From IMG/VR virus record IMGVR_UViG_3300045988_042432: a DNA stretch of 64,000 nt; one strand, 5' to 3'. Origin of the DNA: a virus. Of the stretch, positions 992 to 44,212 are shown piece after piece. Positions within the stretch are counted from its first letter, which is position 1, and each line of letters starts with the position of its first letter. The notes below the pieces were generated by a model that did not search any database, was not told the DNA's origin, and saw nothing but the letters and a program-made list of their open reading frames with translations. A program made the translations under genes and the position numbers.

Positions 992-1635
992 TGCGCTGAC
1001 GCTGTATACAGTTCTATGTTTAGGTCTATTTCCCCACCAGTAAATCTAAATACTCTACCAGAATTATTCATTTTGACCCACCTTCCAGATGAAGGGAATG
1101 TTACTCCTTCTGCCCAATTCTCAGATTGAGAATCTACTGCTAATGTAATTTGAGACACTTGCCTAAGCATCACGTATCCCTCAAAACGTATCCAAACAGG
1201 TGTATTATATGGGTCTTGGTTAGAAGGTGCTAATTTCTCTAAGTAATATTTAAGAGGATTTGCTAAAGTCTTAGTGTACGTTCGTTCTCCTTGCTCTAAT
1301 CTTGGAGTAATTGCAAAGTACATAGTATTGTCAGAATACGTAAACGGCTCTCCATTCACTGAACTCTCATTAACAAATGAGAAACGTACTCTAAATTGCT
1401 GTATATTATTAATTGGCATATCCTGCCAACCATAATGAAGGATTACATTTGGAGCAGTTATAGCTGCCTCTATACCTTCTAACTCCACTAACTGATTATC
1501 AGTATAACTAAATCCACTTTTAATCTGACATCCTAATTCAAGTGCTCTAGCTTTAGTACAGCACTTATTATCAATTACCGAGAGAGTCCCCCCCCCCATA
1601 GTCTTAGCTTCTAATTCTGTTGCTATTTTACTCAT
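988..1635 (-). CDS. hypothetical protein (215 aa)
   Basis: Track ORF that contains the G9 tract encoding GGG (residues 14-16). Confidence 0.65.
   Translation of the reverse strand: MSKIATELEAKTMGGGTLSVIDNKCCTKARALELGCQIKSGFSYTDNQLVELEGIEAAITAPNVILHYGWQDMPINNIQQFRVRFSFVNESSVNGEPFTYSDNTMYFAITPRLEQGERTYTKTLANPLKYYLEKLAPSNQDPYNTPVWIRFEGYVMLRQVSQITLAVDSQSENWAEGVTFPSSGRWVKMNNSGRVFRFTGGEIDLNIELYTASAQ
1587..1595 (-). repeat. homopolymer, C9 on + strand (G9 in the coding strand)
   Basis: Read directly: gagagtCCCCCCCCCatag. It lies near the 5' end of CDS 988..1635. Confidence 0.9.
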
Positions 1636-1897
1636 GGTTCTTGTATCGTTCTGTAATATTAATTAAATCCTTGTTGTCATGCAGTAACTCTAAGAAAGCC
1701 TTGTCTACTGCTATATCAAATGCAGTATTAGTAATGATTGGTTCTTTATGCACTCTCTCAATCTCTTCTCTAATCATTTGTTCAGATAATTGAGTGTATA
1801 ATCGTCTGGTATAATCATTATACCAAGGCTCTTTAAATGTTACTATAATTTCTTCTCCTGTCATAAATATATTGTCTTTAGTAATCCAGGTAGGCAA
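1628..1897 (-). CDS. hypothetical protein
   Basis: Track ORF of 89 aa with a TTG start in the track. The first ATG is codon 12, so the start is uncertain. Confidence 0.45.
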   Translation of the reverse strand: MPTWITKDNIFMTGEEIIVTFKEPWYNDYTRRLYTQLSEQMIREEIERVHKEPIITNTAFDIAVDKAFLELLHDNKDLINITERYKNHE

Positions 1898-1967
1898 TAC
1901 TTCCAGCCTGGATATATGTATGCATTCCTATACAATGCTTCTTCTACTAATTCTACTTCTTGTGTTA

Positions 1968-2279
1968 TCATTGATTAGCCTTTGCTCTTGCTAAATAGTC
2001 TCTAGTTTGCCATCTGCCATCATATTCCATATCCCATGGAGCTACCTTATTTAGTATTTGTAGTAGCTCCTCACCACTTATAGAGTCTCTATGTTTGAGT
2101 GTATGAAGTATTTCATCCTTAAGGTTTCTAATATAGAAGTCTCTCATATGTATGTTAGCATATAATTCCTTTATATAATCCCTCATATACTCTGCTAATT
2201 CATAGTCATTAGTCTTTAATAATTCTAGAGCTCTCTGGTCTACATTATCATAATCACCTGGTATCTGTTCTAGTTTCAT
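1968..2279 (-). CDS. hypothetical protein (103 aa)
   Basis: Track ORF with a TGA stop followed by an in-frame TAA. Confidence 0.6.
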   Translation of the reverse strand: MKLEQIPGDYDNVDQRALELLKTNDYELAEYMRDYIKELYANIHMRDFYIRNLKDEILHTLKHRDSISGEELLQILNKVAPWDMEYDGRWQTRDYLARAKANQ

Positions 2280-2650
2280 TGAAGTTTCTCTAAGTTCTTT
2301 ACTATCGTGAATAGCTCATCTGGTTCGAATGATGTGATATCATTAATAACATCAACCATATACTCTTTAACTTCATCTAGAGTCATTATTTTAAATTCAT
2401 CCTTAGATAGACCTTTAGTTTTGATAAATTTACTAAATATGTCTATAATCTGGACTAAGTTGTGCTTATCTTGTAAATAGAACTCACCCTTCTCTGGATG
2501 AGATGCTAATTTAAATATATCTGCATTGTCTGTAATTACTTGTTCATATTCCTCATCACTAAGAAGATTCATTAACGCTACAGCTTTATCATATAGCAAT
2601 TTAACTTCCTTCTCTTCATACTGCTTATTAATTCTATCAATATGTCTCAT
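2276..2650 (-). CDS. hypothetical protein (124 aa)
   Basis: Track ORF with a 4-nt overlap with the downstream gene. Confidence 0.6.
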   Translation of the reverse strand: MRHIDRINKQYEEKEVKLLYDKAVALMNLLSDEEYEQVITDNADIFKLASHPEKGEFYLQDKHNLVQIIDIFSKFIKTKGLSKDEFKIMTLDEVKEYMVDVINDITSFEPDELFTIVKNLEKLQ

Positions 2651-2652
2651 TA

Positions 2653-2907
2653 TTAGCGAATGTTATTATAAATGCAAGATAGTTGCATTAAATATTCAAT
2701 ACCAGCTCCATTAGCTAGTCCGTCTTGCAATTTATTTAATAATTCTAATTTTACATCTGTTGTTTTATTGTCTAACTTCACCCAGTTAGTTGCCTTTGAT
2801 TCATTACATCCTAAATCAGTATTTACTGGACATTCTGACAAACTAGTCTTTAATATTTTTACTTCATCTACTTCTTTACTTGTTAAGTCTTTAACTTCTT
2901 TAGCCAT
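2653..2907 (-). CDS. hypothetical protein (84 aa), first gene of the minus-strand block
   Basis: Track ORF next to the divergent intergenic region. Confidence 0.6.
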   Translation of the reverse strand: MAKEVKDLTSKEVDEVKILKTSLSECPVNTDLGCNESKATNWVKLDNKTTDVKLELLNKLQDGLANGAGIEYLMQLSCIYNNIR

Positions 2908-3039
2908 TGGTATAAATTTTAGTTATTGTTAATAATTCTGATTTAAGTTCGCAAATATATTATTATTTAATTTGACAATACAAAATTAGTTATATATTTC
3001 AATATTACCAAATGGTAATATAATTATTAATATATATTA

Positions 3040-3053
3040 TATATTGCCAACTC
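3040..3053 (+). repeat. TATATTGCCAACTC 14-mer, copy 1
   Basis: Exact 14-mer. Together with downstream TAATAT it resembles TTGCCA-N16-TAATAT. Confidence 0.85.
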
Positions 3054-3054
3054 A

Positions 3055-3070
3055 AATTCACAGTTAATAT
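3055..3070 (+). repeat. AATTCACAGTTAATAT 16-mer, copy 1 (copy 2 at 15018-15033)
   Basis: Exact 16-nt match between the two loci, read directly. Confidence 0.85.
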
Positions 3071-3074
3071 TAAG

Positions 3075-3088
3075 TATATTGCCAACTC
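3075..3088 (+). repeat. TATATTGCCAACTC 14-mer, copy 2
   Basis: Exact 14-mer, followed by a GC-rich hairpin (GCCCCttcgGGGC). Confidence 0.85.
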
Positions 3089-3166
3089 GGAACTTCATGA
3101 CGTGCTGTGGCAATCTGCGCCCCTTCGGGGCTTGCTTGCAATTAGTAAGATGAATAGAAATTAATA

Positions 3167-3180
3167 TATATTGCCAACTC
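3167..3180 (+). repeat. TATATTGCCAACTC 14-mer, copy 3
   Basis: Exact 14-mer, followed by a hairpin (CCCACtcccggGGTGGG). Confidence 0.85.
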
Positions 3181-3238
3181 ACAAGTACGGGTGCTCAAAA
3201 TCACACCCCTCCCACTCCCGGGGTGGGTTGTCATATTA

Positions 3239-3252
3239 TATATTGCCAACTC
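3239..3252 (+). repeat. TATATTGCCAACTC 14-mer, copy 4
   Basis: Exact 14-mer. Confidence 0.85.
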
Positions 3253-3281
3253 GGATGCTGGGTGAATATTGCAAGATTTGT

Positions 3282-3295
3282 GTATATTGCGGATA
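3282..3295 (+). repeat. degenerate 14-mer copy (TATATTGCGGATAC)
   Basis: The first 8 nt are identical to the 14-mer. Confidence 0.5.
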
Positions 3296-3507
3296 CGACA
3301 GTCGTGTTACCCCTCACACCCCTCACCCATGTTTGGAGAAAATCAAAAGATTTATATCATTTGGTTTTGCTTTATAATATTCATTTTAAAATTATTAGCT
3401 TATGTACACTATTTTATCAAACGGTTTAGTTCGTGTCAATCTTACAGGTTGTTATATCACAATGTCAGAATATAAAGAACTAATTGCAAACGTATAAAAT
3501 TAAATCA

Positions 3508-3531
3508 AGAACGGGTAAATAAGCCCGTTCT
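3508..3531 (+). promoter_or_regulatory. 8-bp hairpin upstream of the first + strand gene
   Basis: AGAACGGG-taaataag-CCCGTTCT, 30 nt upstream of ATG 3561. Confidence 0.4.
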
Positions 3532-3560
3532 ATATTGTTTCACTAATAAATTATTAAACT

Positions 3561-4043
3561 ATGAATTTAGCAGAATTACAAGAAGTTAACAAGAAGTTAC
3601 CGAAAGCAAGCAAAAACGAAATTGCGGCAGCTTTAAACCGTTTGGGTGTGAATCCTGATTCTATCAAGGTAGGCGACAAATTGAAGTTTCCCGCTGAAAT
3701 TAACGAATTTAACGGAACAATCACAAAAGGAGTTGTGAACGGTAATACATTCTTTCAAGTTGCAGTAGAGGTTAACGGAACGGCAAGAAACGTGTCTATC
3801 AATTCTTTGTTCCGGTCTTTTAACGACCGTGAAAACAACAAGCGTATTACACCGGTTGACATTCTTCCAGAGGCGGACAAAGACAAATGTATTTTCAATA
3901 TGTTTGAAAATAAGACAATAGCGGAATGTCTTGCAGATTTACAAGGTACGGAAGTAACCGCAAAGGCGATAGAAACGTTTGAAAGCGTCGCAAGAGACGG
4001 CAACCAAATGAACGTAAATGTCATTGCATATTGCAAGGAATAA
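3561..4043 (+). CDS. hypothetical protein (160 aa)
   Basis: Track ORF that is visibly more GC-rich than its neighbours. Confidence 0.65.
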   Translation: MNLAELQEVNKKLPKASKNEIAAALNRLGVNPDSIKVGDKLKFPAEINEFNGTITKGVVNGNTFFQVAVEVNGTARNVSINSLFRSFNDRENNKRITPVDILPEADKDKCIFNMFENKTIAECLADLQGTEVTAKAIETFESVARDGNQMNVNVIAYCKE

Positions 4044-4060
4044 CAAAGTACTTCTTATTG

Positions 4061-4099
4061 AAAGGCACATTTAGAAAGTCTATTTGTGTCTTTCTTTTT
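4061..4099 (+). terminator. putative intrinsic terminator
   Basis: AAAGGCACA...TGTGTCTTT stem of about 9 bp followed by CTTTTT. Confidence 0.45.
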
Positions 4100-4150
4100 A
4101 TCATGCTTATTCAGATATATTTGTTAGTATGTAGTTAGCTGAATAGTGAA

Positions 4151-4348
4151 ATGAAAGCGAAGAAATCAAAATTAAGAACTGTATTTGGACGTAATCGGAA
4201 CGATGCAATTCATGCAAATAATGGTATAATGTATAAACTGACAAATCCTCTGTTTGAGGAAGCAGTAGGCTATTATTTGCTTGAACAAATCTCCACTTGG
4301 AGTGGGACGAGATATAAAGTACTAAAGTACGTAGTTCAGACCGTTTGA
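4151..4348 (+). CDS. hypothetical protein (65 aa)
   Basis: Track ORF. Confidence 0.45.
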   Translation: MKAKKSKLRTVFGRNRNDAIHANNGIMYKLTNPLFEEAVGYYLLEQISTWSGTRYKVLKYVVQTV

Positions 4349-4440
4349 ATGTGTAAAATGAATATTATTAAGAGTATGTAGGTCTGTGATAGATATGCAT
4401 ACTCACCTTTTGTTTGAGTTGACAATAATACTATATATTT

Positions 4441-4695
4441 ATGGACTACATCGAAGACGATTTCACAGATGCTCTAATTGATGCAATTTGTGAGAAATCA
4501 CCAAGCACTTGGTATACCTTAATAGGAGAGAACTTTGACCCAGACGAAGAGACAATAGTCAAGGAAGCTGACAATAAGAAGGACATTGAAGATGCATTTA
4601 ATGAAAGCAAAGACGACTTTGATTTATTATATGTAGTACTTAATGATGAATCTTATGCGGCATGTTCCAAAGGCTCTAAACTTATTTGGAAGTAA
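4441..4695 (+). CDS. acidic hypothetical protein (84 aa)
   Basis: Track ORF. Confidence 0.55.
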   Translation: MDYIEDDFTDALIDAICEKSPSTWYTLIGENFDPDEETIVKEADNKKDIEDAFNESKDDFDLLYVVLNDESYAACSKGSKLIWK

Positions 4696-4706
4696 ATAAC
4701 GATTAA

Positions 4707-4733
4707 AACCTCATGGTGTATAGGTTAACCATG
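4707..4733 (+). promoter_or_regulatory. start-codon leader motif, copy 1 (AACCT + hairpin with GTATAGGTTA loop)
   Basis: AACCT 4707-4711; stem CATGGT 4712-4717 / ACCATG 4728-4733. The loop AGGTT is complementary to the upstream AACCT. ATG 4731 lies in the 3' arm. Confidence 0.6.
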
Positions 4734-5030
4734 CGCACATTTATGGTATTCGAATACGTTCATTCAAGCGGAATTAAACTACGTCCAGCTAGACCTTTGA
4801 CTAACAGCATATTATACATTTACAATCCAATTGGCAACGAATGGATGCATTTGTGTAAAGAGGACATACATGGACATCTAGAGCTATTGACATGCTTTAG
4901 TAATGGTGCTACTATGTATCAAGTAATTGAAGGTCTTAAGAAGGTAGTAGAGTACTGGGGAGATGACTATCTCGTAGGTCGCAGAGACTTTTACAAAGAG
5001 ATTATAGACATCTATTCCTCACACCGATAA
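4731..5030 (+). CDS. hypothetical protein
   Basis: Track ORF 4713..5030. ATG 4731 is preferred by analogy with the other four motif-bearing genes; 4713 is the alternative. Confidence 0.55.
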   Translation: MRTFMVFEYVHSSGIKLRPARPLTNSILYIYNPIGNEWMHLCKEDIHGHLELLTCFSNGATMYQVIEGLKKVVEYWGDDYLVGRRDFYKEIIDIYSSHR

Positions 5031-5269
5031 CATCACAGGGTTTAGCTCTTCTAAGTAGTTGCAAATGCTTGGAATCCTTTACGTGCAAAATGGACATAAT
5101 GCATGTATTGCCCAAATTAAAACGTTCCTGTTTCACGCGTTAAAGCAGGAGTCCATTATGGTTGTTTTAATTACATTAATCTTTAAGTTTTAAACAGCGT
5201 CCTACATTGTTTGTGGGTTTTGGTATGGCTCCTCTGCCAAGTAATGCGTACAAAGAGCCACTAATCAAA

Positions 5270-5295
5270 AACCTCACACTGAATAGGTAAAGTGT
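5270..5295 (+). promoter_or_regulatory. start-codon leader motif, copy 2
   Basis: AACCT, then stem ACACT/AGTGT with loop GAATAGGTAA. ATG 5304 is 9 nt downstream. Confidence 0.6.
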
Positions 5296-5303
5296 ACATA
5301 GTT

Positions 5304-5591
5304 ATGAGTAAATACGATGATTATCACAGAGTTGACAATAGATATACCACAGCTATAGGAATGAGCGTGTGGAGATTCTTTAATATTGGCAAATATAAGA
5401 ATCAGAAAGTAAAAGACGTCTGTTACTCCAATCCATTCTATGTAGCATGGTGTCTGGAGAACTGGCAAGGATTCAGTCTTACTAGCTACGAACGTTCCAA
5501 TTACATGAAAGGATTAGAACGTCAGTTAGAGAAAGACCCTGAAGACCAAGAACTCATCTTAAAGGTGAGTAAATGTAAAACCATTGTATGA
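5304..5591 (+). CDS. hypothetical protein
   Basis: Track ORF 5292..5591 uses GTG. The first ATG is at 5304 (MSKYDDYHRV...). Confidence 0.55.
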   Translation: MSKYDDYHRVDNRYTTAIGMSVWRFFNIGKYKNQKVKDVCYSNPFYVAWCLENWQGFSLTSYERSNYMKGLERQLEKDPEDQELILKVSKCKTIV

Positions 5592-5890
5592 TTATTTTTA
5601 CAGAAATGATATAGTCATCCACCATAATGGGTACGCCCGGAGACTAATGCAGAGCATCTCTTATACCAAACAGTATCTTCCTTTAATACTGGAGAGATGT
5701 CTTATCGTGAGATAAGGCAAAGGAGTGTGGCACAGGAAGGTGGATTCCTTTACTTGTAATAATATTTTTGTTCGTTTTATTACAGCATATCCTCCCGTGA
5801 CGGGAGTGGCATCATGACTAAGCCTTTACGTGGCGATGCTATAAGTAAGTCAATAGACTGAAACTAATTAGTCATAATTAACCATTAAAG

Positions 5891-5915
5891 ACCTCACAAC
5901 GTATAGGTAAGTTGT
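5891..5915 (+). promoter_or_regulatory. start-codon leader motif, copy 3
   Basis: ACCT, then stem ACAAC/GTTGT with loop GTATAGGTAA. ATG 5924 follows. Confidence 0.6.
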
Positions 5916-5923
5916 AGTAAATC

Positions 5924-6214
5924 ATGAAACAGTATTTTTATTTAGTGACTAAATTAGTAAATGGAGAACTGACTCCACTTAGAATCTTTTTGCAATATAA
6001 GCTAGCCATTAGATTTGGAAGAAATTACGCAACTAAACACCCATATGCTTTAGTAGGTTTACACAAACAAGTAATATCTAACAGTGCAGACATTACTTGG
6101 ATATGTAATCTATATCCTTGGAATCAGGTAGAACCAGACATGATTGAAGCGGAAGAGGAGGTAATGCTTGATATCCTTGCTGATAACAACATGCTTATTG
6201 ACCGTAAATCTTGA
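5924..6214 (+). CDS. hypothetical protein (96 aa)
   Basis: Track ORF. Confidence 0.55.
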   Translation: MKQYFYLVTKLVNGELTPLRIFLQYKLAIRFGRNYATKHPYALVGLHKQVISNSADITWICNLYPWNQVEPDMIEAEEEVMLDILADNNMLIDRKS

Positions 6215-6244
6215 TTACATCATTAATAATTAACGTTTCACTAA

Positions 6245-6270
6245 AACCTTGCATTGTATAGGTAAAATGC
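6245..6270 (+). promoter_or_regulatory. start-codon leader motif, copy 4
   Basis: AACCT, then stem GCATT/AATGC with loop GTATAGGTAA. ATG 6271 abuts the 3' arm. Confidence 0.6.
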
Positions 6271-7098
6271 ATGAAGATTATGGAATTATCACTTGTTAAC
6301 AAACTGAAACAATTACCAATCGAACCGACTTACGTGGTTACAGAGAAGAATGCCGACATATTGAACGGCCTTCATCTTCTTGAGACAAACAGGGAAATTA
6401 AGTCTAACAAGGTAAACGACCTAGTTAAGGCTATTCAAGAAGGGCTCTTCATTCCTCCTATCATTGTGTCTGCTGGAACATTCACTGTCATCGAAGGTGC
6501 TCACAGAACATCTGCATATAGAGAATGCTTGCGCAGAGGTATTCCCTTTACTATGAAGTTGTACTTGGTAAAGGATGTTGAAGCAACCGAAACGTGTATG
6601 CTTATCAATAACACACAGAAGAGTTGGAAGGCAAATGACAGACTCATATCATATGTCAAGCAAAAGAAGAGCTCATACATAATACTGAAATCCTTCATGG
6701 AGAAGCATTCTAAGTATTTCATGAAAGGTACAATGTATAACGTGACGGCAGCTCTAGCACTTCTAAGTCCTCTATCTTCTAATAATGCTGAAGCTGCATT
6801 CAGAGACGGCACCTTGGTTATTACGGAAGAAATGGTGAAGAAAGCTATGCCTACGCTTAATCAACTGAAACTTATTGGCGAAATCCTTGGTGCTAGAAGA
6901 GGTACAGGAGAGGCTGACTTGTCTCCGTTTAGGAGATATAGAATCAAGGATTGGATACGAGCCAGAGATATTATGAATATTTCTGTAGACCAGTTCATGA
7001 ATCGGTTGAAGCGTAGAGTCGATTCCGGTAGGTGGGAAGAACCTTCAGAAAAGAATTGGTTCAATTCTTACATAGAAGTGGCATCGTTAAAACGCTAA
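6271..7098 (+). CDS. ParB-like nuclease domain protein
   Basis: Track ORF of 275 aa. PPIIVSAGTFTVIEGAHRTSAY resembles the ParB/Srx-fold (i-iDG-HR) motif. Confidence 0.5.
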   Translation: MKIMELSLVNKLKQLPIEPTYVVTEKNADILNGLHLLETNREIKSNKVNDLVKAIQEGLFIPPIIVSAGTFTVIEGAHRTSAYRECLRRGIPFTMKLYLVKDVEATETCMLINNTQKSWKANDRLISYVKQKKSSYIILKSFMEKHSKYFMKGTMYNVTAALALLSPLSSNNAEAAFRDGTLVITEEMVKKAMPTLNQLKLIGEILGARRGTGEADLSPFRRYRIKDWIRARDIMNISVDQFMNRLKRRVDSGRWEEPSEKNWFNSYIEVASLKR

Positions 7099-7124
7099 GG
7101 AGTATTACATTTCCATATTTTTAG

Positions 7125-7151
7125 AACCTGGCAGTGAGTAGGTTAACTGCC
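7125..7151 (+). promoter_or_regulatory. start-codon leader motif, copy 5
   Basis: AACCT, then stem GGCAGT/ACTGCC with loop GAGTAGGTTA. ATG 7161 follows. Confidence 0.6.
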
Positions 7152-7160
7152 AACTTATCT

Positions 7161-7673
7161 ATGACTAATGAATTAGCAGAGGAATACAGAGAGCTTAAAC
7201 GTAACTTAATACCCATATTGTTACAGACATGTGGTAAAGAGCGTTTATGTGATGCTGTAGACAAATGGTTATTAGTAAAATCCGGTATCAAAGTAATATC
7301 TAAATCATGGTATGAAGGTGGATTGCCTGGTAAAGAGTATGTGGTAATTAAGGATACTTCAGTACTTGCTAGCTATCCCTCTAAAGGTGCTAATTATGAA
7401 CATCGTCTTGCGAGGTATAGAGCCTACACTAAGGCATTTAACCATGTAAGAGAAGAAGGAATACCTTTGGCTCCTATACAGGTTGATAAATTTACCAAAG
7501 TACTTGTCAATGGAGTAACACTATGCCTTATCGGAACTTTTGAAGGTAAATCAGAGAATGACTTTATCAAAGAGATATCTGGTAAGGTTTACGTAAAGGC
7601 AGGTACTGATTCGGTAGATGTTATTAATCTACAAACTAGAAGAACTAAAAGATATAAAGTTCAGTACACATGA
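7161..7673 (+). CDS. hypothetical protein
   Basis: Track ORF 7134..7673 uses GTG. The first ATG is at 7161. Confidence 0.55.
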   Translation: MTNELAEEYRELKRNLIPILLQTCGKERLCDAVDKWLLVKSGIKVISKSWYEGGLPGKEYVVIKDTSVLASYPSKGANYEHRLARYRAYTKAFNHVREEGIPLAPIQVDKFTKVLVNGVTLCLIGTFEGKSENDFIKEISGKVYVKAGTDSVDVINLQTRRTKRYKVQYT

Positions 7674-8014
7674 AACTATACTTTAACTATACACAGAACT
7701 TCATCCTTGCAGATTGTGAGGGTGAGGTTATTGATATGAGAACTGGTCAGCCCTCTGATGCCAAACTACAATCTCGTCTTAATAGCTACAAAGATGAAAC
7801 TACATCTAAGTGGATTCCTATTAAGGACTTGGGAGATTTGTATGATATGTCAGATAGTGATGTGACAGTTTCTGGCAGCTTAATCACGATGTCCATTGAC
7901 GGACACAAGGTTACAGCTAGACATAAGGTGTCAGCAGGAGTTAATTATGTACAACTGACTGGACACTTCCCTCGCTACTTCTGGAAAGGATTTGCTAACT
8001 TATTAACTAAGTAA
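7670..8014 (+). CDS. hypothetical protein (114 aa)
   Basis: Track ORF with a 4-nt overlap with the upstream gene. Confidence 0.6.
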   Translation: MKLYFNYTQNFILADCEGEVIDMRTGQPSDAKLQSRLNSYKDETTSKWIPIKDLGDLYDMSDSDVTVSGSLITMSIDGHKVTARHKVSAGVNYVQLTGHFPRYFWKGFANLLTK

Positions 8015-8016
8015 CA

Positions 8017-8250
8017 ATGTTATCGCAGATACAATTTAGGAAACAGAGAATACCATGTACTCTCAATCATCAATCTGTTACTTCTCGTGAAGGTAAATTG
8101 CTTCTTGGGTTTGGAACTAACCAGCCCATGATGCAGCAAGCCGAAAGACAAATTGCTAAACATCAGGTTCCTTATGAGACATCTGATTTAAACGGCATGC
8201 TTTCAATCATTATCGATTATTCTATTATCAGCAGTGTAACAACAATCTAA
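8017..8250 (+). CDS. hypothetical protein (77 aa)
   Basis: Track ORF. Confidence 0.5.
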   Translation: MLSQIQFRKQRIPCTLNHQSVTSREGKLLLGFGTNQPMMQQAERQIAKHQVPYETSDLNGMLSIIIDYSIISSVTTI

Positions 8251-8260
8251 CCTTTAAACA

Positions 8261-8503
8261 ATGGATATAAAGAACAGCCCTATAGTTAAACATGCAATTA
8301 ACAATGACAAATCTCTTCTTCCCGGAATCATCGCTTACAGCTGCAAAGAAGCTATAGTAATCGCTAAGAGAGAATGCGGTGATTTTATAGACTTCGCCAA
8401 GGAGTGGATACAGTCCTCCAAACAGCTTTGCGAAGAAGAGAACATTCCATGGGAACAGATTAGGACAGCAACTGGAGATTCTATTGATAATTATATATCA
8501 TAA
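8261..8503 (+). CDS. hypothetical protein (80 aa)
   Basis: Track ORF. Confidence 0.55.
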   Translation: MDIKNSPIVKHAINNDKSLLPGIIAYSCKEAIVIAKRECGDFIDFAKEWIQSSKQLCEEENIPWEQIRTATGDSIDNYIS

Positions 8504-8521
8504 TCTCCTTTCCGTCTAAAA

Positions 8522-8595
8522 GAGAGTCTGATGAGTCGTTGAAAATTACGACGAAACTTCACTGTGATTTGGCACGTCACGGTGGAGTCACTCTT
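8522..8595 (+). ncRNA. hammerhead self-cleaving ribozyme (stem I open, type I topology)
   Basis: Stem I is GAGAGT 8522-8527 / ACTCTT 8590-8595. Core CTGATGA 8528-8534. Stem II GTCGT/ACGAC 8535-8552. GAAA 8553-8556. Stem III is 11 bp, 8557-8567/8577-8587. T 8588 pairs with A15.1 and C17 is 8589. Predicted cut is 8589^8590. Confidence 0.85.
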
Positions 8596-8612
8596 AACCA
8601 ATATTAGTAATT

Positions 8613-8774
8613 ATGAAACTCACTAAGAATAAGAAAGACAATATAATAATTAGTTCTGCCATTGGAGCATTAGTAATTATTAATATCATGTTGCCTACAG
8701 CTGGCGATTTTACATATGTAGCCGGAGCTATAGGTATTGTTGCGGCCATAGGAGTCTGGTTCTTACCAGACTAA
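8613..8774 (+). CDS. small membrane protein (53 aa)
   Basis: Own translation: MKLTKNKKDNIIISSAIGALVIINIMLPTAGDFTYVAGAIGIVAAIGVWFLPD*, with two hydrophobic segments. It starts 23 nt after the ribozyme cut site. Confidence 0.5.
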   Translation: MKLTKNKKDNIIISSAIGALVIINIMLPTAGDFTYVAGAIGIVAAIGVWFLPD

Positions 8775-8815
8775 TCAAATAATTAATAAATCAAACTCTT
8801 TAAATTTAGAAGGAA

Positions 8816-9439
8816 ATGAAGAAATTACAAGAACGCCTGAAAGCTGGTATTGATTTCAATCCAAAGAAAGACCCATGCTATGATTCTATCGTAGAAGAAG
8901 CTGAAACTATTCTTGGGCATGTGCTCGATGCCGCTGAAGGTAAAGAAGTTCCTTACAAGAACTTCACTGTTGGTGGCGGTTATGACGAAAGGAAAGACCG
9001 TGAAATCGTCATTGTTCGTGGTGACGGTGAAGACTTGCTCGTTATGGAAGTTAAAGACGAATCTATTCGTGTGCAACCTCATGAACGTCATGCTGTCACT
9101 CTGAATGAGGATGACGAAGCTTCTGCCCGTGAAATCTTTGACATTCTTATGAAAATGAGAGACCAAAGACAAGGCTCTACATTTAAAGTCGAAGAAGGCA
9201 AAAAAGCTTTGTTTGAGTTTCTGAAGGATATATCTAAGGCTATCGGTGCTGATGTTGAAGGTGTTGAAACGCCAGAAGAGCTATTAAAAGCTCTCAAGGC
9301 TAGAGAAGAAGGCAATGAAGGAGCCATAGAAGATTTGATGCGTGAACAACGCATTCATCTTACTATGCACATGCTTGACTGTTCCCGTGAGAAGGCAGAG
9401 AAGATTGTAAAGAACTTTGAAGAAGCTGTGAAGCGTTAA
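8816..9439 (+). CDS. acidic hypothetical protein (207 aa)
   Basis: Track ORF. Confidence 0.7.
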   Translation: MKKLQERLKAGIDFNPKKDPCYDSIVEEAETILGHVLDAAEGKEVPYKNFTVGGGYDERKDREIVIVRGDGEDLLVMEVKDESIRVQPHERHAVTLNEDDEASAREIFDILMKMRDQRQGSTFKVEEGKKALFEFLKDISKAIGADVEGVETPEELLKALKAREEGNEGAIEDLMREQRIHLTMHMLDCSREKAEKIVKNFEEAVKR

Positions 9440-9450
9440 TAATGCCAAGA

Positions 9451-9522
9451 GAGGATTAGTTTAATGGTAGAAGGCTAGTTGCGAACTGGCGGAGGGAGTT
9501 CGAATCTCCCATCCTCTCCCAA
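9451..9522 (+). tRNA. tRNA, apparent anticodon GCG (Arg), atypical
   Basis: Acceptor AGAGGAT/ATCCTCT. T arm GGGAG-TTCGAAT-CTCCC. Anticodon arm GCTAG-TTGCGAA-CTGGC. CCA is encoded. The D arm is weak and the variable region is 3 nt. Confidence 0.55.
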
Positions 9523-9552
9523 TCATTTTAAAGTTTTGTATAGTTTAGGCTT

Positions 9553-9587
9553 GCCCCAGTCATGTTGTGAAACACACTTGGGCTTTT
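9553..9587 (+). terminator. putative intrinsic terminator
   Basis: GCCCCAGT...ACTTGGGC stem (7 of 8 bp) followed by TTTT. Confidence 0.55.
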
Positions 9588-9600
9588 AATTAATAAGTGT

Positions 9601-9954
9601 ATGAATCAGAATGCAGTTAATTCTTTAAGGAATGCCAAGAGGCATATTCTTATTAGCGATGTTGATAAGTTCAATAGCCATTTATTGTATTACATATTAA
9701 ATGTTATATATGGAACACATGACCATATTAAATTAAATACGATACGTGAAAGACTTGAACGTGAGCTTAAATGGTCATTGGATGAGCATATTCCTGATAA
9801 GGATGTAATTAGAGAATGGCTTGACAATGATTACCCTCTTATATGCATAACAGAGTTATCGTTTGACAGTTGTATTAAACTTGCCAACGATTTCCCAGAT
9901 TATGAAATTGTAGTTTATAGTTGGATGAAACATGAAGGGAACTTACCATTTTAA
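9601..9954 (+). CDS. hypothetical protein (117 aa)
   Basis: Track ORF. Confidence 0.6.
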   Translation: MNQNAVNSLRNAKRHILISDVDKFNSHLLYYILNVIYGTHDHIKLNTIRERLERELKWSLDEHIPDKDVIREWLDNDYPLICITELSFDSCIKLANDFPDYEIVVYSWMKHEGNLPF

Positions 9955-10090
9955 ATGGAATAAAAATAACTCCTAGGCTATTAAGTCTGTAATGGGTACG
10001 CTACTCAATGTAGCACAGGAAGATACTGATAGCTTTTTTGTTCAGGTTTGAGAGACCTCCTGGCATGAGAGGATAATCATGCCGTTCTAT

Positions 10091-10609
10091 GGGCCTAGAT
10101 TTGGTTTTGACAGGCGATTACAAGTTAGTAAGACGTGTAGAGTTCGTACCAACTCTTTAATAATGATACAGCAATTTAAGTGGAAACACTGAAGTAAGAA
10201 TGGCAGCCTAAGCTGCTGGCTTATCTATTAATTTAGCTCTAAGTCGGGTTAATTGGAGAGACCTAGAAACAGAAGAGGTGTGGGAAGAAGCGTATAGAGC
10301 AGCCCACTTAACTTGAAAGCCAAAGGTTAGTAAAGCTGAAATCTCCACTACCTATCTATGGGTTACAAATAGAAACGTTCTCCAACGTAAATGGAGTGGT
10401 GGAGCGACCGTTCGGTCAAGCCCAGTTTGGTAGTTTGTGAACAACTAAGTCGTAGCCCTACGAGGGAGACGTAATTGGTGAATTAACACTCGGCTTCTTA
10501 GTAAAACTACCTACATGCTGAACTCAACAGCTGATGTAATAAAATAGAGACACACGTAATCTTATTAATGAGGGTTGTTTGGACGGCGGTTCGACTCCGC
10601 CTAGGTCCA
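10091..10609 (+). ncRNA. ssrA: tmRNA (transfer-messenger RNA)
   Basis: 5' end is GGGCCTAGATTTGGTTTTGACAGG. The 3' T arm is GGCGG-TTCGACT-CCGCC followed by TAGGTCC-A. Acceptor GGGCCTA/TAGGTCC has G3:U70. Tag ORF 10182-10210 is GGA AAC ACT GAA GTA AGA ATG GCA GCC TAA, giving GNTEVRMAA*. Confidence 0.8.
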
Positions 10610-10637
10610 CTATTATTAACGTTTAAATATCAATTTT

Positions 10638-10991
10638 ATGGGATTATTTATTATTGCAGTGATTGTTTTACTTATTTGTGTATGTCTTTCGCGAGTAGGG
10701 TCTAAAGACCTAAGAGAAGTTGCAGTGGCAGTTGAGATTGTATTCTCAATGGCAACAGTTGTGGCAGCGATTTCATTACCATTCGCTATTAAGGGAAATA
10801 CTCAAATTATTGGCAAGCATGCAGTGCTAAAAGAAACATTGGAGGCTACTGATAGGAAGAATTACTATCTTATATCTAGTGATGTTTTAGAGCTCAATTA
10901 TACTATTATGAATCATAGGAACTTTGTAGACAATTTCTGGATTGGGATATGGTATGATAAGGACGTAGCTAAATTGGAACTATTAAAATGA
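10638..10991 (+). CDS. membrane protein (117 aa)
   Basis: Track ORF with two N-terminal hydrophobic helices. Confidence 0.6.
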   Translation: MGLFIIAVIVLLICVCLSRVGSKDLREVAVAVEIVFSMATVVAAISLPFAIKGNTQIIGKHAVLKETLEATDRKNYYLISSDVLELNYTIMNHRNFVDNFWIGIWYDKDVAKLELLK

Positions 10992-12487: not shown

Positions 12488-12557
12488 CCACTATTGACGA
12501 ATAGTGGTAGCAAAACTTGGTCTGAAGAACCAGTAGACATATTCCGGAGTATGTCTA
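12488..12557 (+). ncRNA. candidate structured RNA: three adjacent hairpins including a tRNA-Phe-like anticodon arm
   Basis: First hairpin CCACTATT-gacg-AATAGTGG (12488-12507). Second TTGGT-CTGAAGA-ACCAG (12517-12533). Third TAGACATA-ttccggag-TATGTCTA (12534-12557). All lie in a 380-nt ORF-free gap. Confidence 0.3.
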
Positions 12558-12865
12558 TGACTTAAAGGCTATATCAAAGAGTTGAAACCTGTATCTATTC
12601 GAACAGTAGGAGTTCACCTGATTAAGCATCAGAAAACAGTAGTGCAAATCTACTATAGATATTGTGTAAGAGAGAATCTACACGGTCTGTATTATATAAT
12701 CAGCATGCAGATAGGTCACCAAGCAAACCTCTTTCCTGCCTGGTCAAGTGTGCATTACGGTCTGTAAGTGGCGAGCGGGTTAACGTATGTCCGATTGCCG
12801 TAATGCCGCTTGTTTATTGTTTAGAATAAAGAAAGACTCTCATAACAATAAATTTAAACAAAGAG

Positions 12866-14560
12866 ATGGAAATGAAAGGAGCACAAAGGCCAAGGAGGCC
12901 TTACCCTAATGCCGCACGTCAAAGGCGGGATGAGAATAAACCTAAGTTTGTGGATAATAATCAGTTATTCATAGACCAGTTTGTTAATCTTAAGAAATGT
13001 CTTCAGCCACGTACCTACGTGCAAGTGGCTAAAGATATGTATCCTTTATGGAAAGCTAATCCATTACTATGTACTAAGTTTACTGCATATACGAGAATGA
13101 TAACTCGTAAATGTAGAATAATTACCCCGGAAGGAGTTATACAACTTGATACACAGCAAGGAGAAGGTTTGAAGAATGAAGGTATAATGAGAATGTTGTG
13201 GTTGGCAATCTATCACAAACCCACATTCCATGCCAACATTGCTTATTTTGCAGCAGCTGGATGCTGGAAAGATTTCATTACTATGATGGCTTTAGATGTT
13301 CAACTCCATGGCTTTAAGCACAGATTGGATTGGGACTTCTTCAAGAAAGTCATATTCGCAGGTCTTGCCAACGGTCAGACATGTGATTTAGTAAAGAAGT
13401 ATCTTCCTCGTGTTCGTTCCAGTGTTGCATGTAAGACAGATGAGGCAAAAGCACGTAATACAGTAGCCAAATTCTTGGCGGAAGGCCTTTATGGTAAACC
13501 TAAGGATGAAGGAGACTATTCAACCTATCGTAAATATAGGAAGATGAAGAATAGCGGGAAAGCAGCCCAATGGCAGCAGTTAATCAGTCAAAAGAAATTC
13601 TTGGAAATCGATTTTGACACTGTTACTGGAAAGGCACTGGCACAGCTAGTAGGCTCTAAATTCCTCAAACATCAAGGTCTTAAAGAGAAGTATCAGAACT
13701 GGTTGAAGAACCGTAAGAAGCCCTCTAATAGCGGATTTCTACATACTCTGTTCAAACCATACGGATTGGATAAAATTGCCGAAGAGATTCCAGAATTTAT
13801 GGAAACTTCTATTAATGCAAGTTTCAATGTATTTGTTGATAATGCTAAACGCAATAGAGTAGCTCCGTTGTTGGTAGTAAGAGATATAAGTCATTCTGCT
13901 AATGGTGAGATAGAGAATAGCGAAACATCTGCTTACAGTTTGGGTAAAGTATATGCTTTATATCACTCTGAATTACTTCCTACAATATTCAAAAACTCCT
14001 ATGCCGTGTTAGAAGATAACATGGTTCTACATAAGTTCAAAGGTCAGAATGTCATTGAGAAATGGAAAGCTGACAAAGAAGAAGCATTATGCCAGAATCC
14101 TTCTATTATTAATATAGCAGAAATGCTGTGTAAAATGAAAGAAGATTATGGTGTGGATGAAGGAGAGTTCCCTAGAGGTTGTGTGGTAATTACTAACCAT
14201 ACATATTTTACCAAGTTGAACAACCAAGCATTCGTGGAATTTAAGCAAAGACTGCTTAAAGCAAATTTCAGTAAGGAATTTGTAAGAGCATTCAAAGTTA
14301 TCATTTGGAGAGTTCCTTTAGCATATAAGGGAAGACCTAATGTGGCTTTGGTTCCAGGAGTGTCAAATTGCTTCTTAGTAAATGGACTTAATAATTCAAC
14401 ATCCTCATTTATTACTGGAGAGAAGAGGTTCCAGGTGCCTAAAACCACTAGAGACATCTTTAAGCATGCTATGAATCAAGAGTTGCTTAATATGATGATT
14501 CTAGAGAAGGATGTTGTCAAGAAGAATGCAAGCGTGCAGAAGAAGCCTGTGAAGGTCTAA
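12866..14560 (+). CDS. TROVE/DUF2828-like protein with vWA-type MIDAS motif (Ro60-like architecture)
   Basis: Track ORF of 564 aa. AAAGCWKDFITMM resembles the GW-KDLL motif of TROVE/DUF2828 proteins, from memory. LLVVRDISHSANG is a DxSxS MIDAS-like motif. Confidence 0.4.
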   Translation: MEMKGAQRPRRPYPNAARQRRDENKPKFVDNNQLFIDQFVNLKKCLQPRTYVQVAKDMYPLWKANPLLCTKFTAYTRMITRKCRIITPEGVIQLDTQQGEGLKNEGIMRMLWLAIYHKPTFHANIAYFAAAGCWKDFITMMALDVQLHGFKHRLDWDFFKKVIFAGLANGQTCDLVKKYLPRVRSSVACKTDEAKARNTVAKFLAEGLYGKPKDEGDYSTYRKYRKMKNSGKAAQWQQLISQKKFLEIDFDTVTGKALAQLVGSKFLKHQGLKEKYQNWLKNRKKPSNSGFLHTLFKPYGLDKIAEEIPEFMETSINASFNVFVDNAKRNRVAPLLVVRDISHSANGEIENSETSAYSLGKVYALYHSELLPTIFKNSYAVLEDNMVLHKFKGQNVIEKWKADKEEALCQNPSIINIAEMLCKMKEDYGVDEGEFPRGCVVITNHTYFTKLNNQAFVEFKQRLLKANFSKEFVRAFKVIIWRVPLAYKGRPNVALVPGVSNCFLVNGLNNSTSSFITGEKRFQVPKTTRDIFKHAMNQELLNMMILEKDVVKKNASVQKKPVKV

Positions 14561-16866: not shown

Positions 16867-16938
16867 GCCCCATTACTTCAGTGGTAGAAGAGCAAATTCT
16901 AAACTTGTATGGCGTTGGTTCGAGTCCAACATGGGGCA
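16867..16938 (+). tRNA. amber suppressor tRNA, anticodon CTA
   Basis: 72-nt cloverleaf. Acceptor GCCCCAT/ATGGGGC. D arm CTTC-AGTGGTA-GAAG. Anticodon arm GCAAA-TTCTAAA-CTTGT with CTA at 16899-16901 and an A31:C39 mismatch. T arm GTTGG-TTCGAGT-CCAAC. Confidence 0.8.
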
Positions 16939-16940
16939 CT

Positions 16941-17019
16941 TGCGGAAGAATGAAACGGATATATAAATCATACTAGTCTCATAAGCTAGTTATATTGGGT
17001 TCGACTCCCATTTCCGCAA
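16941..17019 (+). tRNA. tRNA(CAT) with enlarged 14-nt D loop (Met or Ile2)
   Basis: Acceptor TGCGGAA/TTCCGCA. D arm ATGA-(14 nt)-TCAT. Anticodon arm CTAGT-CTCATAA-GCTAG. The T stem has 4 bp plus one mismatch. Confidence 0.6.
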
Positions 17020-17055
17020 CTACAGTCATTGTACATTTGCATTTTCAGAATGCTA

Positions 17056-17119
17056 AGAAGACAAACAGCAATTTCCTGTATGTTGGCATAAGTAAATGAA
17101 TCTATTGTCTTCTGATGAT
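17056..17119 (+). promoter_or_regulatory. tRNA-leader hairpin family, copy A
   Basis: AGAAGACAA-ACAGCAA...TTGTCTTCT, then GATGAT, then tRNA-Ile +1. Confidence 0.65.
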
Positions 17120-17192: not shown

Positions 17193-17222
17193 CAATACAA
17201 CAATTTTCAATAGCTTTGAATA

Positions 17223-17294
17223 AGAAGTCTTACGGCACGAAAGAAAGTGTTTCATATTTTATGATTTTAATTAAACTAAGAGACTTCTGTAGTC
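17223..17294 (+). promoter_or_regulatory. tRNA-leader hairpin family, copy F
   Basis: AGAAGTCTTA-CGGCAC...TAAGAGACTTCT, then GTAGTC, then tRNA-Pro +1. Confidence 0.6.
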
Positions 17295-17663: not shown

Positions 17664-17682
17664 CTCGATTTAGTGAAACATA

Positions 17683-17746
17683 AGAAGGCGTACAGCACTA
17701 ATCATTGTACAGTTTACATGTTTTTGATAACGCGCCTTCTGTGGAT
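17683..17746 (+). promoter_or_regulatory. tRNA-leader hairpin family, copy C
   Basis: AGAAGGCG-TACAGCACTAA...CGCCTTCT, then GTGGAT, then tRNA-Lys +1. Confidence 0.65.
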
Positions 17747-19915: not shown

Positions 19916-19931
19916 CTGAATGGGTAATATA

Positions 19932-19985
19932 AGAAGGCATCAGCACTTTTACTGTGTCATGTAGTTCAATTTGCCTTCTGATGAT
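19932..19985 (+). promoter_or_regulatory. tRNA-leader hairpin family, copy B
   Basis: AGAAGGCA-TCAGCACTTT...TGCCTTCT, then GATGAT, then tRNA-Arg +1. Confidence 0.65.
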
Positions 19986-24734: not shown

Positions 24735-24755
24735 TCCTTTTACAGTGAATTTCTA

Positions 24756-24821
24756 AGAAGACTTACAGCACTAAGGTAATCATAAGCGATTGATATAGCA
24801 TAAATAAGTCTTCTGTGGATT
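24756..24821 (+). promoter_or_regulatory. tRNA-leader hairpin family, copy D
   Basis: AGAAGACTTA-CAGCACTAA...TAAGTCTTCT, then GTGGATT, then tRNA-Ser +1. Confidence 0.65.
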
Positions 24822-24909
24822 GGAGAGTTGGGTGAGTGGCTTAAACCAGTCCCCTGCTAAGGGACCGAACCTCAAAAGGGTTCCGCTGGTTCGAATCCAG
24901 CACTCTCCG
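24822..24909 (+). tRNA. tRNA-Ser(GCT), class II
   Basis: Acceptor GGAGAGT/ACTCTCC with G73. Anticodon arm GTCCC-CTGCTAA-GGGAC. Long variable arm. T arm GCTGG-TTCGAAT-CCAGC. Confidence 0.9.
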
Positions 24910-24961
24910 CGCTGGCTAATAAGAGTTTGCGAAAATCATTATTAACCTAATTATTAGAATT

Positions 24962-26987: not shown

Positions 26988-27004
26988 CTTTCTTTGATTT
27001 ACAA

Positions 27005-27045
27005 AGGAGATGTCAGCACACTTGGTAACATCGTCTCCTGTTTAT
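27005..27045 (+). promoter_or_regulatory. tRNA-leader hairpin family, copy E (short)
   Basis: AGGAGATG-TCAGCACAC...CATCGTCTCCT, then GTTTAT, then tRNA +1. Confidence 0.55.
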
Positions 27046-44103: not shown

Positions 44104-44212
44104 AGGAAGCATGTAAGTAATACTGTGAGTTATGCTGACAGACCGTCCACGTGAAAAGCCCAGTACGTGATACTGGCAAGGGCGGCCGTTAAATCGGAAT
44201 TGCTTCCTGTAT
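44104..44212 (+). promoter_or_regulatory. large leader hairpin closing 4 nt upstream of tRNA-Arg
   Basis: AGGAAGCA 44104-44111 pairs with TGCTTCCT 44201-44208. Then GTAT, then tRNA +1. Confidence 0.5.

Follow-up and report, generated by a model that had tools for sequence, protein, structure and literature searches.

A probable type I hammerhead ribozyme between two cistrons of an uncultured gut phage and the phage and prophage subclass to which it belongs

Positions 8522–8595 on the + strand of a 64,000-nucleotide stretch of viral DNA (IMG/VR record IMGVR_UViG_3300045988_042432, hereafter the window) very probably encode a genuine, presumably tertiary-stabilised type I hammerhead ribozyme, which belongs to a subclass widespread in gut phages and prophages and is predicted to cut a polycistronic RNA. 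The assignment is based on the motif itself, its statistical significance, its membership of a family, the covariation within that family, and a conserved placement between cistrons. The element is real but ordinary; phage hammerheads cutting polycistronic RNAs were described in 2011. What is gained is one well-supported hammerhead in an uncultured gut phage and, of more practical consequence, the recognition of a blind spot: no Rfam hammerhead model, at its threshold, detects a subclass that is widespread among phages and prophages of the gut, and this subclass is present yet unannotated in GenBank phage genomes.

Anatomy of the element and chance expectation

Direct reading of the 74 bases reveals a complete type I hammerhead with every element in order (Table 1). 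The conserved core C3-U4-G5-A6-N7-G8-A9 is found at 8528–8534 and G12-A13-A14 (GAA) at 8553–8555, while A8556 and U8588 form the 15.1:16.1 pair and are followed by C8589 at position 17 (H17, not G). A hammerhead is expected to be free of mispairs next to the core at 10.1-11.1, 1.1-2.1 and 15.1-16.1 (PMC3088659), and the corresponding pairs G8535:C8552, A8590:U8527 and A8556:U8588 are all intact. Reading and minimum-energy folding together assign 6, 5 and 11–13 bp to helices I, II and III around the core. The minimum-energy fold of 8518–8599 is exactly the three-way junction (−27.4 kcal/mol, z = −3.0), none of 200 shuffles folded as well, and the junction persists in the minimum-energy fold of a 261-nt context. 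The element coordinates of the original prediction thus proved correct to the base. The positions of its predicted cut (8589^8590, 23 nt 5′ of an ATG and 86 nt 3′ of the preceding stop) were confirmed as well, and its central claim, a complete type I hammerhead cutting at this bond between two cistrons, is supported by anatomy, chance statistics, a covarying family and the family model.

Table 1 Features of the hammerhead, its flanking genes and the tRNA leader hairpins in the window
Feature	Position	Strand	Remarks
Complete element	8522–8595	+	GAGAGU-CUGAUGA-GUCGU-UGAAAAUU-ACGAC-GAAA-CUUCACUGUGA(U)-UUGGCAC-(G)UCACGGUGGAG-UC-ACUCUU
5′ flank CUAAAA	8516–8521	+	Aligned by the family model to its 'uauuAA'
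AA directly 5′ of stem I	8520–8521	+	Family-conserved dinucleotide
Stem I, 5′ strand GAGAGU	8522–8527	+	Pairs with 8590–8595; 6 bp, outermost pair G.U
Catalytic core CUGAUGA (C3-U4-G5-A6-U7-G8-A9)	8528–8534	+	Direct reading; invariant in 15/15 close relatives
Stem II GUCGU/ACGAC	8535–8539 with 8548–8552	+	5 bp, G10.1:C11.1; reading and fold
Loop II UGAAAAUU (U-GNRA-AUU)	8540–8547	+	8 nt; caps stem II
GAAA (G12-A13-A14-A15.1)	8553–8556	+	Reading and fold; A8556 (15.1) pairs with U8588 (16.1)
Stem III	8557–8567 with 8577–8587	+	11 bp, plus inner U8568.G8576
Loop III UUGGCAC	8569–8575	+	Closes the stem III hairpin 8557–8587
U16.1 and C17	8588–8589	+	GUC triplet; predicted scissile bond 8589^8590
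Stem I, 3′ strand ACUCUU	8590–8595	+	Would become the 5′-OH end of the downstream product
Upstream 80-aa ORF	8261–8503	+	Stop ends 18 nt before stem I; open in 15 relatives; no PHROG match
Downstream 53-aa hydrophobic ORF	8613–8774	+	ATG 23 nt after the cut; no PHROG match
tRNA leader hairpins	17053–17119, 19929–19985, 17220–17294, 17680–17746, 24753–24821
Weaker tRNA leader hairpins	27003–27045, 44172–44212		Before Thr and Arg-ACG

The chance expectation for such a site was estimated with a type I descriptor (core CNGANGA; minimum lengths of 4, 3 and 3 bp for stems I, II and III, respectively; GAAA required after stem II, and U plus a non-G after stem III). With both strands of the window scanned, 8522–8595 is the sole match. 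Three hundred dinucleotide-preserving shuffles of the window yielded 0.073 descriptor matches per window overall and 0.013 when the canonical core was combined with relaxed stems; no match in these shuffles was as strong as the observed site. A topology-free scan of the window for the core, a stem II hairpin and GAAA returned no other canonical candidate. The heptamer CTGATGA occurs at 16 sites on the + strand, most of the others being located within ORFs, where they encode Asp-Glu (...GAU GAR...), and two in tRNA leaders, and none of these other sites carries stem II followed by GAAA.

Sequence variation was followed in 15 close relatives, i.e. IMG/VR contigs of 67–162 kb found with a downstream 207-aa protein (91–100% identity). 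All 15 keep the hammerhead. Among them, the 43 positions that make up the core, stems I and II and loop II are invariant, a result that is only weakly significant because these contigs differ little from one another in this region (0.03–0.15 variable columns per site). Stem III and loop III form the only variable part, with changes at 5 of 31 positions. Two of these preserve pairing, G8581A (U.G to U-A) and A8586G (U-A to U.G), whereas G8564A, carried by 8 of 16 sequences, introduces an A.C mismatch into stem III; the remaining two are loop or apical changes. The mismatch at 8564 is probably tolerated, as 8 bp separate it from the core and the helix is 12 bp long. The window's own lineage contributes only two pair-preserving changes and one mismatch. 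A blastn search with 7000–10700 against GenBank phages matched the tmRNA region alone and provided no annotated relative.

Build and covariation of the subclass and its Rfam scores

A broader family was retrieved from IMG/VR with the pattern CTGATGAG-NNNN-TGAAAATT-NNNN-CGAAAC, which fixes the core and loop II, leaves stem II free and places no constraint on stems I and III. This module of core and loop II is present in at least 119 viral stretches, among which 99 distinct sequences with full flanks were used for family statistics. In every one of the 99 pattern matches, the four stem II positions left unspecified form pairs, in seven versions (GUCUU/AAGAC, GUCGC/GCGAC, GUCGU/ACGAC, GUAUC/GAUAC, GUAGC/GCUAC, GUCUC/GAGAC and GUUUU/AAGAC). 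A type I architecture could be parsed in 84 of the 99 sequences, compared to 0.4 of 99 after shuffling of the 110 nt downstream; the other 15 mostly represent the module in a type III arrangement or carry a single mismatch or bulge. The type I members share a stem I of 5–6 bp and, in 73 of 84, the cleavage triplet GUC. Directly 5′ of stem I, an A is found at −1 in 82 and at −2 in 81 of the 84, where the window has AAAA. The stem III hairpin is 31 nt long in the window compared to a family median of approximately 14 nt.

Covariation was evaluated on a plain MAFFT alignment of 75 members from which the close relatives of the window were left out (alignment A1). Here, 96.7% of the cells are paired, in contrast to 28–45% when the 3′ partners are slid by 1–3 columns, and 313 cells are changed on both sides, in contrast to 76 ± 9 in shuffles. 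Compensatory changes are found in 12 of 16 pairs, and in stem I each of the six pairs covaries. Covariation across the family is strong for all three stems. A covariance model built from this alignment (R1) and run over the whole window with filters off matched 8516–8599 to model positions 1–69 with 61.5 bits (E 1e-16), a score that is partly circular because the pattern used to collect the members was taken from the core and loop II of the window element itself; its independent part comprises stems I and III, the AA flank and an A-rich 3′ flank. The next best match in the window reached 12.5 bits. It should be noted that the U-GNRA-AUU subclass is defined here, by model R1, and could already lie within the alignments of PMC3088659.

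The identity of loop II was examined further with a loop-free pattern, CTGATGAGTCTT-N3-14-AAGACGAAAC. The loop variants recovered are UGAAAAUU, UGAGAAUU, UGCAAAUU, UGGGAAUU or UGGAAAUU, i.e. an inner tetranucleotide GAAA, GAGA, GCAA, GGGA or GGAA within U...AUU, which corresponds to a GNRA-type cap. By analogy to natural hammerheads, loop II is most simply explained as the stem II half of a tertiary contact between stems I and II, and the AA flank 5′ of stem I is a candidate for its partner. Watson–Crick pairing of the flank with the loop (AA:UU) is not supported: loop variants ending in GU, GC or CU keep the AA, and no covariation of the loop II UU with the AA flank was observed among the loop variants. 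The sTRSV hammerhead is a type III ribozyme from a circular satellite RNA, and RiboJ is an engineered, synthetic insulator in which a hammerhead in the 5′ leader standardises the mRNA 5′ end. The element in the window resembles the sTRSV type in its GNRA-like stem II loop, which is presumed to dock on stem I; it differs from both in that stem I is open and flanked by mRNA.

The same module was found in 68 stretches of species-representative bacterial genomes, mostly metagenome-assembled genomes (MAGs) of gut Clostridia, Lachnospiraceae and Oscillospiraceae, with a few Bacteroidales among them. These bacterial occurrences presumably represent prophages. In GenBank, the module is present in the crAss-like phages cr53_1, cr131_1 and cr272_1, with no annotation under the match, and a literature search for the loop II sequence revealed nothing relevant. 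Other self-cleaving or RAGATH RNAs are found in the company of the element, namely RAGATH-34 in the window and RAGATH RNAs, hatchet and twister in the loci of its relatives, and the neighbourhood in the window is typical of such ribozymes. A separate accumulation was observed in another gut phage (IMGVR_UViG_3300045988_026766), where three hatchet ribozymes and RAGATH-6, -7, -9 and -14 occur in a 10-kb stretch (approximately 1600–9100) together with a permuted tmRNA and a type III hammerhead that carries the U-GNRA-AUU stem II module.

The Rfam models respond poorly. A search of the window returned no hammerhead family at gathering score (RF00163, RF00008, RF02276, RF03152). When only 8480–8640 (161 nt) was searched, RAGATH-1-hammerhead (RF03152) scored 23.8 bits (cut-off 56.3, E 0.035) in a full-length alignment of correct architecture, and Hammerhead_3 (RF00008) scored 21.3 bits (cut-off 48.5) in an alignment that covers the core, stem II and GAAA. 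Both matches are significant only at this small search size, and neither appeared in a whole-window search at E ≤ 1. The original prediction had proposed a covariance-model search of 8480–8640 as a check and had counted the absence of a significant hit as one half of what would speak against it. That half is formally what was found, in so far as no match reached the gathering score. Twelve other phage loci with obvious hammerheads of the same subclass gave no Rfam hammerhead match either, albeit Rfam does detect hatchet, twister-P5 and several RAGATH RNAs in these loci. Because these 12 fail likewise, a sub-threshold score is not diagnostic, and the Rfam result is a limitation of the models for this subclass rather than evidence against the site. 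The closest model, RF03152, shares with the element type I topology, a closed stem III and a GUC site, as well as a 5-bp stem I with a conserved UAAAA-like flank 5′ of the stem. It differs in that its stem II is minimal, with a single annotated pair, and in carrying an additional hairpin on the 5′ side; stem II of the window element comprises 5 bp and closes a loop of 8 nt. The core consensus is common also to RF00163, RF00008 and RF02276 (hammerhead types I, III and II), whose thresholds the element does not reach.

The low Rfam scores and the A.C mismatch in stem III of many relatives could be read as signs of a chance match, or of a decayed relic in which the motif has been kept and cleavage lost. 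We consider this highly improbable, given that all core positions and the three core-adjacent pairs are intact, that the core and stems I and II are unchanged in every relative, that about 0.01 or fewer such sites are expected by chance per window, and that the family model recognises the element with the E-value given above.

Gene context and predicted consequences of cleavage

The window covers the part of a large phage that is rich in tRNAs and concerned with replication, with approximately 27 tRNAs, a tmRNA, RAGATH-34 and genes for a DnaB-like helicase, a primase and an exonuclease. A conserved 670-aa protein shares about 47–50% identity with proteins from large myoviruses of Bacillus, Salmonella and Serratia. 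The ribozyme is located in a same-strand block of small ORFs, 3′ of a ParB-like gene and 5′ of tRNA, tmRNA and replication genes. The ORFs around it are all on the + strand and tightly packed, with gaps of no more than 41 nt from 7134 onward and a single exception, an intergenic gap of 109 nt, which is explained by the ribozyme that fills it. Searches of the flanking ORFs against PHROGs and Pfam assigned no function except for the ParB-like protein (6271–7098). A terminator scan found no consensus terminator between the flanking genes, and sigma-70 promoter-like matches were fewer than in shuffles; the scan is uninformative.

Two parts of the original prediction concern these genes. The description of the region as an early operon is unsupported: the same-strand block is evident, but timing is not readable from sequence. 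The assignment of the downstream 53-aa ORF to a membrane protein is plausible, albeit without a database match, as the ORF contains two hydrophobic segments and is open in all 15 relatives. Its variable codons among the relatives comprise five with synonymous changes only and four with amino-acid changes. No clear Shine-Dalgarno sequence precedes it.

Placement is conserved across the family. The predicted cut is usually found 20–45 nt 5′ of the next ATG, a range that includes the 23 nt of the window, and a Shine-Dalgarno-like sequence precedes the next ORF in 52 of 79 members. The proteins encoded downstream vary widely; most are small, and most show no relationship to one another. Known prophage hammerheads likewise flank single genes of varying identity (Perreault et al. 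2011, PMC3088659); some of them were shown to cleave polycistronic constructs of about 2 kb in vitro and also to cleave in E. coli (PMC3088659). It was proposed that hammerheads divide long phage transcripts into mRNAs of gene length (PMC3088659; review PMC6765202), and bacterial hammerheads near phage-like genes were found to cleave in vivo by cyPhyRNA-seq (PMC8782182). Compared to the type I and III phage and prophage hammerheads of PMC3088659, the element in the window has the same core and likewise sits between cistrons, beside small phage genes whose identity varies; a role in cutting long transcripts, as proposed for those hammerheads, would be common to both. Differences exist in number and in the phage: the window carries a single ribozyme, where the published cases are pairs or triplets flanking a gene, and it belongs to an uncultured gut phage with approximately 27 tRNAs and a tmRNA, unlike the published examples.

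In analogy to the proposal for prophage hammerheads, the element most likely cuts a polycistronic phage transcript co-transcriptionally. Cleavage in vivo, co-transcription with the neighbouring genes and an effect on expression are what we infer from the sequence; cleavage of the nascent RNA at 8589^8590 is expected because the placement matches the pattern in PMC3088659 and bacterial hammerheads do cleave in vivo. The element would be transcribed within a + strand polycistronic RNA and fold as soon as 8595 leaves the polymerase, whereupon the 2′-OH of C8589 would attack its own phosphate. The RNA of the 80-aa gene would be left ending in a compact ribozyme, including the long stem III, with a 2′,3′-cyclic phosphate. 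The RNA for the 53-aa ORF and later genes would start at A8590 with a 5′-OH and an AU-rich leader of 23 nt devoid of a Shine-Dalgarno sequence. The short, 6-bp stem I could melt after cleavage and free this leader. As a likely consequence, the stability and translation of the neighbouring cistrons would be uncoupled.

The direction of the effect may be different, however. An active hammerhead could serve to form and protect the 3′ end of the upstream RNA, or to down-regulate the downstream genes, instead of providing a productive 5′-OH mRNA; we regard this as possible, if unlikely. The upstream 3′ end should block 3′ exonucleases owing to its very stable fold (12–13-bp stem III) and the cyclic phosphate, and such roles would be consistent with the unusual length of the stem III hairpin, with the lack of a terminator-like site between the genes and of a Shine-Dalgarno sequence before the downstream ORF, and with the literature, which leaves the direction of effect open (PMC6765202). 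The downstream RNA would lose its 5′ triphosphate upon cleavage. Still, the fairly fixed distance to the start codons and the frequency of Shine-Dalgarno-like sequences in the family suggest that the downstream leader matters, and protection upstream and a leader role downstream are not mutually exclusive. Either of the two, a protected upstream 3′ end or a freed and differently stable downstream 5′ end, may be the selected effect.

A further feature of the family may bear on regulation. The stop codon of the upstream gene (UAA) abuts stem I in approximately 30 of 75 members, so that a terminating ribosome would cover stem I and the core. Together with the striking conservation of loop II, this raises the idea that folding is gated, either by ribosomes terminating upstream or by a factor that binds the U-GNRA-AUU loop and the AA flank, and that the element acts as a switch rather than a constitutive cutter. 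This is improbable for the element in the window, where the upstream stop is located 18 nt before stem I, and equally so for the subclass as a whole as a translation-coupled or factor-gated ribozyme switch. A GNRA-type loop II with an A-rich flank is most simply a tertiary contact between stems I and II as in natural hammerheads (PMC3088659), and no covariation between the loop UU and the AA flank was seen. We know of no ligand or protein for either loop II or the AA flank. If the switch were real, it would allow gut phages to set the timing or the dose of the small accessory genes downstream.

Further RNA features of the window

Several additional RNA features were identified in the window. 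RAGATH-34 was found at 12488–12595 as a strong match (120.9 bits, cut-off 60.7), 270 nt 5′ of a 564-aa ORF (12866–14560). This ORF had no Pfam match and its only annotation is PHROG 850, 'RNA-binding protein'; RAGATH-34 and the ORF may form an RNA–protein pair. The tmRNA (10091–10612, 85.8 bits) contains long insertions and spans 522 nt compared to 374 positions in the model.

In the tRNA region, a tRNA with the anticodon CUA (amber suppressor; 'Pyl' in ARAGORN) is located at 16867–16939, and its presence suggests that TAG may be decoded as a sense codon in some genes of this phage lineage. It is directly followed by a weak tRNA-like match at 16955–17018 (22.7 bits, sub-threshold) with a clear T-arm. 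The tRNA-Arg reported by ARAGORN on the − strand (24849–24925) overlaps the + strand tRNA-Ser (24822–24910) and is probably a mirror artefact.

Two of the CUGAUGA heptamers in the window precede tRNA-Ile and tRNA-Arg. They were considered as tRNA-embedded hammerheads and rejected, as GAAA is lacking and the stems do not match; the heptamers occur there because they are part of a separate motif, a conserved hairpin leader, which is not itself a hammerhead. The leader ends 5–7 nt before several tRNAs (Ile, Arg-UCU, Pro, Lys and Ser-GCU; Table 1) and follows the form UAAGAAG-N-C ... (A)CAGCAC ... G-N-CUUCUG, with a closing stem of 8–10 bp that covaries at the N positions. No Rfam family matched the hairpin. 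A loose pattern had three matches in the window where 0.04 were expected, and a stricter pattern was found in 44 IMG/VR stretches from several phage lineages. In 9 of 10 distinct leader sequences a tRNA is located 5–7 nt downstream, and the hairpin may represent an element for pre-tRNA processing or recognition.
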